Origin: Eledone cirrhosa
Lineage: Eukaryota
Reading direction: 5' to 3'
Assembly (NCBI GenBank): GCA_964016885.1
Contig: OZ024744.1
Coordinates: forward strand, 54,250,001-54,314,000
DNA length: 64,000 nucleotides
The position numbers and the translations under genes are program-made. The notes below the pieces were generated by a model. That model was given only the letters and a program-made list of their open reading frames with translations, searched no databases and was not told where the DNA came from. Positions 221 through 56,755 of this stretch are shown in pieces; position 1 is the first letter of the stretch; every line of letters starts with the position of its first letter.

Positions 221-280
221 TTTTTTTTGTAGGTTCAGTCTTCATTGAAGCAATGCGAGGAGACACTGCAATATGGTCAC
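221..280 (-). CDS. Most 3' visible micro-exon, diverged class R: (G)[19 protein letters not shown]
   Basis: ttctag|GTGACCAT...AAAAAAA|gtaagt, 60 nt, open in phase 1. Confidence 0.8.
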
Positions 281-54200: not shown

Positions 54201-56755
54201 GGAAAAAAATATGCAGAAGAAAAGAATAATAAAAGCTAGAAGGCTTTCTGGAGAAGAGTTTGTTGACAAGTTGAAGAAAGGGTAGAATGAGTTGTCATTT
54301 GTTTAATCAACTACATCAAATTATACGGTTTGTTCTCTCAATGACATGCTTACTTATCCCAAAAATATAAAACTTCCAAAAGGAGTAAATTGTGGCTAGT
54401 GAAATGTGGGATGTCAAGAATTATGAGAGAAATATTCTACAGTTTCCCACTGGTCCTGAAAATCAGATTTATATAGTGGTGTAACCAAATATTTAGGGTA
54501 CTGGCTGATGTAGTGGAAAAGAGGATGCAGCGTATGAACAATGAAGGGTGACAAGAAATTGTGAAGAACTATAGGATAAAGTTTTGATAAGGAAGAGTAT
54601 ACTGATCTCTGAAATAATTCAATCTACGTCAATGAATCTAGTGCAACATTTATCTTCTCATTTGAATCACATGTAATGTCATTCTTTCTCAGCTATCTCT
54701 GAAATGCCCTAAATAAGTCTAGCTATACTTTTGTCATCATTACAAGGTCTTTCAGGAAGTCAATAAAATGTTTATTCTGGATTATGTTATGGAGTTTGTA
54801 TTATAGAGTTTGATATTGTTGACTGAATTAAGTAGTTATAAATTTACTGTTAAAAACCTAAATTAGTTACTGAATAACTTATTACATGATGTTTAAATTA
54901 TAACTTACTCCTTTGAGTAGTTTCAGGCTTCCTTGCAGCACTGGGAGGGGACACGGTAATATGGTCACCTAGAATATATAAACAAAATCATAGTAAACTT
55001 ACACGTATATATACAATTAACATTACAAATACAGGAAACAGTTATTACAATCATTATCTCTGATATATACACGTATATACACCAGGTCCAAACACAAATG
55101 GACCAACTTCCTCTGTCCTTGGCATATATATATATATATATATATATATATATATATATATATACATATATTTATATATAGAGAGAAAGGATAAATTACA
55201 GAATAACTTATTAGATAATGTTCAAATTATAACTTACACTTTTCAGTTGATTTGTTCTCTATTGAAGCAATGCGAGGGGACACTGTAATATGGTCACCTA
55301 GAATATATAAACAAAACCATAGTAAACCTACATGTATATATACAAATAACATTACAAATACAGGAAACAGTTATTAGATTCATTATCTCTGATATGTACA
55401 TATATACATTAGGTCCAAACACATGTACCAAACTCCCCCTGCCCCTGCCATATATATATATATATTGTTATATAGTGAAATGATTAAATACGCTAACTGC
55501 TTAGATCTGTAAATATACATTTACTACTAAATTTTCTATAATCATGGCAACAGTCCTAATAAAGAAAATTTATTCTTACATACACAAAGATTGCACACAG
55601 AACCTCACACTCACACAAACAAAAACAGGGCTCACACCCACTCAAAAATGCATCACCGGTGAAGCACACCCAAACAGGTACACAATGAATTAATATACAA
55701 CCCAATAGACCTATATGTATACATCAACATACACATAATACCAACATCACTTCATTTATATATGTACACACTATTTTATTCATTATGTCCACCATACACA
55801 TTTCATAAACTTCCATGTATACAAATATACAATATAATAACAATTTGATATTAATGTTGAAACACGTGTAATAGTTTTCTGTACTAACTGGTAGGAATGT
55901 GTTTGAAATACAACTTACTTTCTTTTGATCCACCTCGTATGTGCGTGCCTGATTCAGAGACAAAGATCTCTACAGGAGTCACACCTGGAAAAAAATATAC
56001 AGAAGAAAAGAATAATAAAGGCTAGAAGGCTTTCTTAAGAAGAGTTTGTTGACAAGTTGAAGAAAGGGTAGAATGAGTTGTCATTTGTTCAATCAACTAC
56101 ATCAAATTATACGGTTTGTTCTCTCAATGACATGCTTACTTATCCCACAAATATAAAACTTCCAAAAGGAGTAAATTGTGGCTAGTCATATGTGGGATGT
56201 CAAGAATTATGAGAGAAATATTCTACAGTTTATCACCGGTCCTGAAGATCAGCTATATATAGTGGTGTAACCAAATATTTAGGGTACTGGCTGATGTAGT
56301 GGAAAAGAGGATGCAGCGTATGAACAATGAAGGGTGACAAGAAATTGTGAAGAACTATAGGATAAAGTTTTGATGAGGAACAGAATACTGATCTCTGAAA
56401 TAATTCAATCTACGTCAATGAATCTAGTGCAACATTTATCTTCTCATTTGAACGACATGTAATGTCATTCTTTCTCAGCTATCTCTGATAATCCCCTAAA
56501 TAAGTCTAGCTATATATTTGTCATCATTACAAGGTCTTTCAGGAAGTCAATAAAATGTTTATTCTGGATTATGTTATGGAGTTTGTATTATAGAGTTTGA
56601 TATTGTTGACTGAATTAAGTAATTATAAATTTACTGTTGAAAACCTAAATAAGTTACTGAATAACATATTACATGATGTTTAAATTATAACTTACTCCTT
56701 TGAGTAGTTTCAGGCTTCCTTGCAGCACTGGGAGGGGACACGGTAATATGGTTAC
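221..56755 (-). CDS. Partial multi-exon gene: 77 phase-1 micro-exons encoding ~1,590 aa of a 62-aa tandem repeat (S/T/P/K/E-rich, mucin-like or disordered); N- and C-termini not in window
   Basis: Each exon lies between a plus-strand ACTTAC/ACATAC (donor GTAAGT/GTATGT on minus) and CTAGAAT or CTGGAAAA/CTGCAAAA (acceptor TTCTAG, TTCCAG, TTGCAG). Low coordinates of P exons (60 nt): 2904,7617,10014,12194,14511,16697,18909,20683,22672,24866,28682,31965,33743,35525,37310,39086,41236,43816,46199,48747,50938,52715,54909,56696. C exons (66 nt): 1949(63 nt),6841,9031,11419,13538,15920,18132,19906,21689,24090,27699,31135,32967,34749,36534,38310,40459,43041,45436,47986,50162,51954,54133,55919. R exons (60 nt): 221,525,1107,3413,8338,10728,12848,15231,17443,19224,20998,23398,25607,27010,29717,30442,32280,34062,35850,37623,39770,42351,44539,44843,47299,49472,51273,53443,55238. 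Only phase 1 is open in all three classes. Confidence 0.85.
692..984 (+). mobile_element. 3' end of RTE-clade LINE (3'UTR plus (GAT)n tail)
   Basis: Reverse-complement match to 4222-4510 (aggaagggcatccagccgtagaaaacc...gacgttaaacgat(gat)n). Confidence 0.85.
1331..1498 (-). mobile_element. 3' fragment of a different RTE-like LINE
   Basis: Minus strand translates [51 protein letters not shown] followed by a (TAGA)n tail. GRP...DR..WR is the typical RTE ORF C-terminus. Confidence 0.75.
1949..2011 (-). CDS. Diverged class C micro-exon, 63 nt: (I)[20 protein letters not shown]
   Basis: tttttttccag|TTATGACT...AAAGAAA|gtaagt; exactly one codon shorter than the other C exons. Confidence 0.8.
2043..2228 (-). 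mobile_element. tRNA-derived SINE (diverged copy)
   Basis: Homologous to 9129-9313; minus-strand A box TGGCAGTATCGG and B box GAGTTCAAATCCC. Confidence 0.8.
3658..3910 (-). mobile_element. Tc1/mariner (maT/DD37D-like) transposase 3' remnant
   Basis: Minus strand: [42 protein letters not shown], resembling the L..AI..AW..I......C.SF..RL.AVI.A.GG.IE C-terminus; ends next to a TA run. Confidence 0.7.
3946..3988 (+). ncRNA. Minimal type I hammerhead ribozyme (Penelope-like remnant, ~3911-4138)
   Basis: gtca-CTGAAGA-g-gtcaca(gaatg)tgtgac-GAAA-g(aa)c-TT-tgac: stem I 4 bp, stem II 6 bp, minimal stem III. Confidence 0.65.
4222..6737 (-). mobile_element. 5'-truncated, frameshifted RTE-clade (BovB-like) LINE with reverse transcriptase
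   Basis: ORFs 5663-6262 and 4812-5537; motifs [33 protein letters not shown] (5559-5570), C-terminal DLWR; 3' (GAT)n tail. Confidence 0.95.
7842..8236 (-). mobile_element. ~390 bp 3' end of an RTE subfamily, amplified with the array. Other copies start at ~10241, 14737, 16922, 22897, 25093, 28908, 29942, 39311, 44043, 48972, 52939; partial at ~56925
   Basis: Minus strand encodes [20 protein letters not shown], homologous to the RTE C-terminus [20 protein letters not shown]. Shares ctggatacccttcctaacaccaacc and the (CAT)n tail; same position in each unit. Confidence 0.85.
9129..9313 (-). mobile_element. tRNA-derived SINE with ~20 bp target-site duplication
   Basis: A box TGGCAGTATCGG, B box GAGTTCAAATCCC; flanked by atacagaagtaaagaataat (9109-9128) and atacagaagaaaagaataat (9316-9335). 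Confidence 0.9.
12447..12648. mobile_element. Small fold-back insertion (~52 bp inverted arms), probable Penelope-like remnant
   Basis: 12521-12572 is the reverse complement of ~12597-12648; degenerate CTGATGA...GAAA core. Confidence 0.55.
12645..12790. repeat. (TA)n microsatellite
   Basis: Long, nearly pure TA run. Confidence 0.95.
13636..13817 (-). mobile_element. tRNA-derived SINE, same site in unit
   Basis: Near-identical to 9129-9313. Confidence 0.9.
21787..21971 (-). mobile_element. tRNA-derived SINE, same site in unit
   Basis: Near-identical to 9129-9313, TSD present. Confidence 0.9.
25835..26927 (-). mobile_element. 5'-truncated RTE LINE, same family as 4222-6737
   Basis: ORF 26232-26669 [21 protein letters not shown]...GRPRKTW...DRDLWR; 3'UTR and (GAT)n tail. 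Confidence 0.93.
27797..27982 (-). mobile_element. tRNA-derived SINE, same site in unit
   Basis: Near-identical to 9129-9313, TSD present. Confidence 0.9.
31233..31286 (-). mobile_element. Residual 3' part of the same SINE
   Basis: tgtttctactattggcacaaggccag...actggtacttt, then the unit sequence resumes. Confidence 0.8.
41629..41708 (-). ncRNA. Type I hammerhead ribozyme, sense to the micro-exon gene
   Basis: tctctcg-CTGATGA-t-gcc...tctgtt(aca)aacaga...ggc-GAAA-cagatta(ggga)taatctg-TC-cgagaga: perfect 7-bp stems I and III, GUC site. Confidence 0.8.
41957..42036 (+). ncRNA. Type I hammerhead ribozyme (other arm)
   Basis: CTGATGA 41964-41970, GAAA 42006-42009, stem III cagatta/taatctg, GUC; imperfect stem I. 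Confidence 0.7.
42351..42410 (-). pseudogene. Class R micro-exon copy with destroyed acceptor (pseudo-exon)
   Basis: Plus strand reads GGTCAC-ATAG instead of GGTCAC-CTAG, so acceptor AG>AT. It also carries an N>K change. Confidence 0.7.
46433..47208. mobile_element. Second copy of the fold-back Penelope-like remnant (arms 46433-46741 / 46826-47133), hammerheads at ~46582-46660 (-) and ~46908-46987 (+)
   Basis: Same sequence and same site in the unit as 41482-42258. Confidence 0.8.
55238..55297 (-). CDS. Micro-exon class R: (S)[19 protein letters not shown]
   Basis: ttttgtttatatattctag|GTGACCAT...GAAAAGT|gtaagt, 60 nt. The other two frames contain stops. Confidence 0.8.
55919..55984 (-). CDS. 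Micro-exon class C: (S)[21 protein letters not shown]
   Basis: Strong polypyrimidine tract ttcttttcttctgtatatttttttccag|GTGTGACT...AAAGAAA|gtaagt, 66 nt. Two synonymous changes vs consensus (ACA>ACG, AGA>CGA). Confidence 0.8.
56696..56755 (-). CDS. Most 5' visible micro-exon, class P: [20 protein letters not shown]
   Basis: ttctag|GTAACCAT...CAAAGGA|gtaagt, 60 nt, phase 1-1. Confidence 0.8.

Follow-up and report, generated by a model that had tools for sequence, protein, structure and literature searches.

A tandem micro-exon array of Eledone cirrhosa as the probable coding middle of one gene in a family of repeat-protein genes

The closest described counterpart of the locus analyzed here is the Olduvai (DUF1220) domain, which the accessible portions of the reports characterize as a disordered unit of ~65 amino acids (aa) from a lineage-specific multi-locus family with a three-part higher-order repeat (bioRxiv 10.1101/2021.07.06.450945; PMC9584774). 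One Olduvai domain corresponds to an exon doublet in ~1.6 kb and one triplet to 4.8 kb (PMC9584774; bioRxiv 10.1101/2021.07.06.450945), and NBPF20 consists of 19 canonical triplets (PMC9584774). According to similarly partial sources, class 1,1 exons are phase-1 symmetric, often internally duplicated and encode disordered chains (PMC3632108), while the micro-exon genes (MEGs) of Schistosoma comprise 10-20 exons of mostly 15 bp and encode proteins of up to 189 aa with a signal peptide (PMC10526429). Here we describe a 64,000-nt stretch of the E. cirrhosa genome (contig OZ024744.1, hereafter C28, positions 54250001-54314000; referred to as the window). It contains 77 micro-exon segments on the minus strand between positions 221 and 56755, which fall into three classes (24 P, 24 C and 29 R). 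The array probably forms the coding middle part of a genuine multi-exon gene, locus A, which is one of ~17 paralogues of a protein-coding family. The family is best read as lineage-specific and NBPF/Olduvai-like in its architecture with no relation in sequence.

Segments in the window were called by an ungapped scan and blastn followed by an nhmmer-based re-call. The re-call reproduced the splice sites given in a preliminary description of this DNA, namely GT donors in all 77 segments (GTAAGT in 73, GTATGT in four) and AG acceptors in 76, the R copy at 42410 having AT instead. All exon lengths (60, 63 or 66 nt) are divisible by 3 as stated there. The three classes also stand, but not their lengths of 60 and 66 nt throughout, because the last C copy measures 63 nt. 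Phase-1 stops are absent from all 77 segments, and phase 1 is the sole phase open in all classes, as had been noticed before: phase 0 is closed in 24/24 C and 25/29 R exons, phase 2 in 24/24 P, 23/24 C and 29/29 R exons. As a control for chance occurrence, the pattern AG-(60/63/66 nt)-GTA[AT]GT was counted in the window and was found 87 times on the minus strand versus once on the plus strand. Exons are ordered as (PCR)n with five RR steps. Splicing of the 76 copies with intact sites gives 1,567 aa, and inclusion of all 77 gives the ~1,590 aa calculated previously. The introns are variable and bear transposable elements, again in agreement with the preliminary description. They measure 695-917 nt between P and C, 253-1055 nt between R and P and 533-3368 nt between C and R, and one holds a fragment of a long interspersed nuclear element (LINE). 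Having arisen recently, the copies are nearly identical to each other (12 distinct P, 12 C and 23 R sequences, 47 in all), so that 77 intact copies do not represent 77 independent tests. Independent evidence was therefore sought outside the window, and the stronger evidence for coding comes from the paralogous loci rather than from the window copies.

The complete model of locus A comprises 132 exons over 185 kb (Table 1). In silico splicing by coordinates yields 8,247 nt coding for 2,748 aa and no internal stop. All but two of the exons (130/132) are 60-66 nt long, and from ATG to stop the model contains a 73-aa head, the micro-exons, a two-codon tail and nothing else. There are 133 full micro-exon units (77 in the window, 40 upstream and 16 downstream), 130 of them with intact sites. 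The ATG of the start exon is preceded by an in-frame stop, and its donor, which opens an intron of 11.8 kb, is in phase 1 as required by the micro-exons. The model was derived from genomic sequence, and the introns may harbor additional unrelated exons. Combination of a phase-1 start exon, phase-1 units of 3n length and a stop exon permits gain, loss and skipping of units without frameshift. The single large gene proposed in the preliminary description thus holds as a large repeat gene, but its scope was wider than thought: the window covers the middle 77 of 133 units, and the gene belongs to a family. Extension of both flanks revealed the start and stop anticipated there; the anticipated signal peptide was not found and a basic helix-Pro-Cys-helix segment occupies its place.

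Comparison with the whole genome showed that the start exon matches 17 places (ten on C28, six on contig C18 and one unplaced), 15 of them with an intact exon and GTAAGT donor. For the terminal segment there are 17 matches of 250 nt or more, and partial copies besides. A full terminal segment follows 15 of the start exons on the same strand at a distance of 50-225 kb. Of 16 last exons examined, 15 have AATAAA at 195-207 nt from the exon start, whereas that of the decayed locus S has an insertion at that place. Coverage was complete for loci A, D, E, F, J and S and partial for N, P and H; of C it comprised 30 kb and the last exon, and of B, I, K, L, M, O and Q the end exons only. In every complete locus examined, the start exon ends in phase 1 and is followed by 3n phase-1 micro-exons, which number from tens to hundreds, and by a stop exon with poly(A) signal. 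The earlier proposal that the gene expanded by duplication of exon-intron units gains from the same-phase start and terminal exons, from the recurrence of this architecture at 15 or more loci and from the avoidance of stops described below.

Exact patterns detected at least 421 A-type and at least 340 J-type starts of 60-nt exons as well as at least 137 donors of A-type C exons, 88 of which belong to one locus at 43.2-43.4 Mb. C28 carries every A-type locus found. The layout is the same in a second subfamily, made up of J, N, P and H, whose diverged exons include 48-, 51-, 57-, 63- and 78-nt types and which also has GC donors. The diverged exon types (48, 51, 54, 57, 60, 63, 66 and 78 nt) are all 3n and open in phase 1 except for one late stop in H. 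Unit counts are approximate, since the nhmmer models missed the most diverged terminal exon types and mis-called a few borders in H. J and N are 97-99% identical over 20 kb. Locus F (C28:44.187-44.197 Mb) is a 5'-truncated copy, whose array begins directly after a 5.36-kb tandem duplication; no start exon was found in the 32 kb upstream of it. Six near-identical J-type genes, some in opposed orientation (K-/J+, N+/M-), form an ampliconic cluster at C18:5.15-9.38 Mb. In locus H, an intronic tandem array of ~0.8-1.2 kb units (C28:4.654-4.662 Mb) corresponds to one intron segment in J and in P. The unplaced contigs C159, C114 and C1507 carry an array with an H-like start exon and a terminal exon and probably represent one more gene or haplotype.

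Evidence for selection on the reading frame was obtained from the distinct exon sequences. Of the 229 distinct live 3n exons, one contains a stop in phase 1, compared with 127 in phase 0 and 211 in phase 2. In a conservative test, which assumes a 2:1 transition bias, 266 distinct substitutions led to 9.1 expected stops while one was seen (P about 0.001). A tree-parsimony expectation of ~19 stops was set aside in favor of this distinct-variant count because it is inflated by gene conversion. Expectations for exon indels were not used because the exons had been selected on length and because indels of the introns are concentrated in simple repeats. In the window, splice dinucleotides underwent 0.0-0.25 changes per site compared with 0.46-1.62 at flanking intron sites. 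Moreover, dead or broken units account for 13/76 in loci with a broken or absent start exon (D and F) versus 7/168 in intact A-type loci (P=0.002, with copies that are not independent). Locus S is largely decayed, and the premature stop in J and N resides in a copy whose donor is already dead. Judged by substitution counts, two of the three comparisons between subfamilies reveal purifying selection on codons 1-45 of the start exon (J vs H with eight synonymous and two non-synonymous changes, P=0.00015; A vs H, P=0.005; A vs J, P=0.11).

When the subfamilies are compared, identity amounts to 57-64% in the micro-exons and 69-85% in their intron flanks; the start exon reaches ~85%, its non-coding flanks and the 3' end 95-98%. 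The coding parts hence diverge more than the non-coding ones. This pattern fits either diversifying selection or conversion of the flanks.

The arrangement of the units suggests how the array may have grown. The upstream intron, an (AT)n tract and the 5' end of the exon are common to P and R. The (AT)n tract is located 120-230 nt upstream in 50 of 53 P/R units, and a crude rule classified 13 of 181 A-type 60-nt exons as P/R chimaeras. Growth may have occurred by unequal crossing-over or conversion between homologous exon-intron units. Misaligned crossing-over within the sequence shared by P and R would insert or delete entire exons in frame and generate RR steps and in-register chimaeric exons, and dead copies would be skipped with the frame kept.

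The protein predicted from locus A has an isoelectric point of 9.6 and a mass of ~295 kDa and contains ~120 S/T-P motifs, 89 RxxS/T motifs and 39 NxS/T sequons. Its repeat region is composed of 16% Ser, 11% Thr, 10% Lys, 9% Ile, 8% Glu and 8% Pro (Ser+Thr 27%). A maximum 19-residue hydropathy of 0.5 speaks against any signal or transmembrane segment in the predicted protein. Its N-terminus is polybasic, with a maximum hydropathy of 0.19 over the first windows. The head is a conserved 45-residue basic helix-Pro-Cys-helix segment with two Lys/Arg clusters; AlphaFold placed helices at residues 3-25 and 29-43 around Pro-Cys-Tyr (six-sequence alignment, predicted template modelling score 0.42). From its composition, the chain is presumably disordered over most of its length. 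Known short motifs (AKAP helix, PxIxIT, SxIP and LC8 TQT), compared by eye, gave no convincing match. The product would accordingly be pictured as a non-secreted, basic, mostly disordered chain rich in Ser, Thr, Lys and Pro. Its 45-residue head would target the protein, most likely either to a membrane, by the basic face and Cys acylation, or to the nucleus, by the two Lys/Arg clusters. Such a chain could act as a length-variable, phosphorylatable spacer or scaffold, in which frame and length outweigh residue identity.

Several observations weigh against a protein-coding family. Splicing, transcript and product are all predicted from genomic sequence. The ratio of non-synonymous to synonymous substitution rates (dN/dS) of the micro-exons is ~1 (0.69-1.25; synonymous share 56/248 vs 0.26-0.29 expected), which leaves the identity of the repeat residues without detectable purifying selection. 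Locus E possesses an intact start exon, yet contains a 59-nt exon and a late stop, and locus H has a stop in the second-last exon. A C copy with a dead donor was amplified in J, N and P (12, 11 and 7 copies in the fetched parts), demonstrating that amplification needs no usable exon. Frameshifts or stops in live exons (2/380 in intact vs 2/68 in broken loci) do not differ significantly (P=0.11). The dN/dS values and the amplified dead-donor copies are what one would expect of an exon-derived macrosatellite with real start and last exons, in which most micro-exons are passengers rarely spliced in and owe their intactness to a recent intact template. Near-identity of the copies is in line with this as well, and in-register crossovers preserve the frame even without selection. 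Such an origin appears improbable in view of stop avoidance on distinct substitutions (1 vs 9.1 expected), the slower change of splice dinucleotides than of flanking intron sites (0.0-0.25 vs 0.46-1.62 per site) and the stronger decay where the start exon is broken. Furthermore, the 3n length is kept across exon types that have lost most of their sequence similarity. The substitution data indicate selection on the frame and no detectable purifying selection on the repeat residues.

Dispersal of near-identical loci in both orientations (J vs N 97-99%) could also arise if the gene were cargo of a mobile element, i.e. a Helitron or giant DNA transposon, and the arrays were repeats internal to it. 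In agreement with this, a Pif1-helicase fragment and a minisatellite are located 17 kb beyond the last exon of A, and this minisatellite recurs at 8-12 kb beyond J, N, P and H. However, sequence shared between subfamilies extends only from ~2-3 kb before the ATG to ~3.5-4 kb beyond the last exon. The Pif1-linked repeat lacks collinearity between A and J and does not occur within 10.7 kb of F, and no intact transposase or helicase open reading frame (ORF) was seen in the part of the shared unit covered, all of which makes cargo very unlikely. We see an equally slight chance for a secreted mucin-like or structural protein of skin, egg case or spermatophore, which would employ a signal-peptide exon further upstream or unconventional secretion. 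Its Ser+Thr and Pro contents and the 39 sequons would suit such a protein, and in A, C, E and H a T-rich stretch before the ATG reads as ~25-30 hydrophobic codons lacking a start codon. In all six copies inspected, though, the ATG is the first in-frame one after an in-frame stop (five codons upstream in J and P), and the polybasic N-terminus with its low hydropathy does not resemble a signal peptide. A protein-coding gene family thus remains the probable explanation of the array.

The chromosome that carries the window probably is or contains the Z chromosome. Sampled contigs C1-C27 decrease in size from 443 to 22 Mb, and C28 (136 Mb) stands after them and breaks the size order (18 contigs sampled, plus C18). 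Two marker genes, Amnionless at 56.4 Mb and OCIA at 58.9 Mb, map to C28 less than 5 Mb from the window. In the available parts of the respective publications, Amnionless is reported as Z-linked in Octopus vulgaris (bioRxiv 10.1101/2024.12.09.627507) and OCIA lies within the conserved cephalopod Z block (PMC10925132, Table S6). A third marker was ambiguous: RH1 (SPAG9-type) matched C1 and an unplaced scaffold and not C28, and a search of the genome for JIP_LZII gave no match. The family also has six start exons on C18, an apparent autosome, which, like the RH1 matches, weigh against a sex-chromosome location. The multi-copy layout on the Z-marker chromosome suggests a germline role, probably in testis, which we put forward tentatively, by analogy, as a little short of an even chance. 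Rather doubtful is the further-reaching view of a mostly Z-linked germline family in genetic or sexual conflict, a counterpart of NBPF and ampliconic genes that escalates dosage by hundreds of micro-exons (~2,700 to >5,000 aa) and whose exons are driven to outpace their own introns in divergence. If it were true, exon skipping could give very large isoform diversity, and the family would have gone unseen by current annotations because it resembles satellite DNA.

Three read runs from one sample, the kind of which is not on record, were inspected. Their contigs cross the last acceptor unspliced and the intron repeats are deeply covered. The reads behave as genomic DNA, possibly from the assembly's own sample, and are uninformative on expression.

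Homologues were searched with several tools, each of which has limited sensitivity when the pieces are short and evolve fast. The start exon and the C-exon read-through gave nothing above cut-off in Pfam, Olduvai included. A 21-position C-exon profile compared with 1.84 billion proteins by HMMER had three matches, all unrelated on inspection; the 'titin-like' one covers 12 profile positions only and was judged a chance match. Word-index protein searches with the 43-codon R-exon read-through and the start-exon alignment found no homologue; they are weak because they are limited to proteins of up to 2,000 residues and exact 5-mers. The ESM Atlas returned no usable match, Foldseek none, and the best sequence match in the PDB had an E value of 0.012.

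Some features of the gene ends and of the window were recorded in addition. A TGACGTCA palindrome ~600 nt before the ATG of locus A (L007:8930-8900) is conserved in 6/6 aligned loci and doubled in J and P. It resembles a cAMP response element (CRE). A (CCA)n-rich tract of ~1.9 kb lies directly upstream in locus A. Downstream of the poly(A) signal, a 33-nt minisatellite (L016:4140-6200) with several open frames extends over ~2 kb in A and is short in F, J and H. The long low-complexity ORFs of both regions, 5' of the start exon in the (CCA)n tract and 3' of the stop in the minisatellite, were rejected as exons. Part of the 3' end (terminal exon +180..360) is present as an inverted copy a few kb downstream in most paralogues, at +3,200..3,400 in F and J and at +7,200 in H; none was found in A. 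The Pif1 helicase fragment (L018:8221-9274) is accompanied by a long A/C/T minisatellite, an arrangement resembling a Helitron, and pol-like fragments of long terminal repeat retrotransposons lie beyond it. The largest intron of the array contains a GIY-YIG ORF (58477-59079) within a direct duplication of 2.6-2.8 kb (window 57551-63540).

Table 1. Coordinates of predicted gene parts of locus A and of insertions. Positions without prefix are those of the window; exon positions are first bases on the minus strand.
Feature	Position	Strand	Remark
Intron start	1..220	-	gene runs on past window left end
Micro-exon array, 77 phase-1 symmetric exons, P-C-R units ~1.8-2.2 kb	221..56755	-	predicted gene middle (locus A)
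24 P exons, 60 nt	2904..56755	-	56755, 54968, 52774, 50997, 48806, 46258, 43875, 41295, 39145, 37369, 35584, 33802, 32024, 28741, 24925, 22731, 20742, 18968, 16756, 14570, 12253, 10073, 7676, 2963
24 C exons	1949..55984	-	66 nt: 55984, 54198, 52019, 50227, 48051, 45501, 43106, 40524, 38375, 36599, 34814, 33032, 31200, 27764, 24155, 21754, 19971, 18197, 15985, 13603, 11484, 9096, 6906; 63 nt: 2011 (2011-1949)
29 R-type exons, 60 nt	221..55297	-	55297, 53502, 51332, 49531, 47358, 44902, 44598, 42410 (AT acceptor, probably skipped), 39829, 37682, 35909, 34121, 32339, 30501, 29776, 27069, 25666, 23457, 21057, 19283, 17502, 15290, 12907, 10787, 8397, 3472, 1166, 584, 280
LINE reverse-transcriptase (RVT_1) fragment	4815..5678	-	insertion in C-R intron, not gene part
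Part of 9.5-kb intron	56756..64000	-	gene runs on past window right end
Inverted repeat/palindrome ~3.3 kb, arms 95-98% complementary	57551..60864		insertion around GIY-YIG ORF, Penelope-like
40 further P/C/R exons	C28:54316222-54370261	-	upstream of window array, beyond window right end
Decayed unit remnants	C28 ~54371.3-54372.0 kb	-	between upstream exons and first coding exon
First coding exon: ATG, 73 codons + 1 nt, GTAAGT donor	C28:54382306-54382087 (L007:8306-8087)	-	from comparing paralogues' upstream regions
16 diverged 60-nt exons, two with TG acceptors	C28:54245499-54198186	-	downstream of window array
Terminal exon: related AG acceptor, two codons, stop, AATAAA ~205 nt in	from C28:54196925 (L016:6925)	-	after last unit

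If expressed, the loci would be very large genes with no relative in the proteins searched, residing within sequence that repeat maskers and short-read assemblies discard or collapse, and they would constitute a candidate multi-copy family on the ancient cephalopod Z. Selection on frame and length could also be tested cleanly in this family in the absence of selection on residues, and the decaying paralogues would serve as built-in controls. No published description was found in the cephalopod and repeat-gene literature, of which the sources seen were partial and most subscription journals lay outside coverage. As far as these searches reach, the family appears undescribed, and its gene architecture is a new variation on a known type.

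Titin possesses many short PEVK exons; in the locus A model, no Ig/Fn3 flanks or other exons occur between ATG and stop. Unlike a secreted mucin, the model has neither a signal peptide nor a transmembrane segment. With the MEGs, as far as described in the accessible part of the source (PMC10526429), the loci share a multi-gene family of short, mostly 3n exons missed by annotation pipelines. In contrast to the short secreted MEG proteins with their signal peptide, the product would comprise 2,748 aa without a hydrophobic segment, and the loci contain ~25 to several hundred exons of 48-78 nt in homogenized units that would encode hundreds to thousands of residues. Phase-1 symmetric exons and a putatively disordered product are also known from proteins built of class 1,1 exons (PMC3632108, seen in part). 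Those genes are conserved with defined binding modules, whereas the ~17 loci evolve fast and have no conserved domain. Like the ampliconic families of sex chromosomes, again as partially accessible accounts describe them, the loci are multi-copy, near-identical and fast-evolving genes, with ten of the 17 start exons on a probable Z; they differ in that six copies are located on another chromosome and that amplification took place within each gene as well as between genes. The closest resemblance is to NBPF/Olduvai, with which they have in common, on the available portions of those reports, intragenic tandem exon-intron units, a higher-order triplet and a lineage-specific multi-locus family. 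The Olduvai repeat is translated, disordered and cleaved per triplet, while disorder of the repeat described here is suggested by its composition. Here, moreover, each exon by itself is phase-symmetric, and three exons would encode 62 aa in ~1.8 kb, compared with the Olduvai exon doublet in ~1.6 kb. Compared with the 19 triplets of NBPF20, up to ~88 units are found in one gene, and the protein would be basic. If expressed, the family would represent an independent origin of NBPF/Olduvai-style protein growth, at finer grain and on a larger scale.

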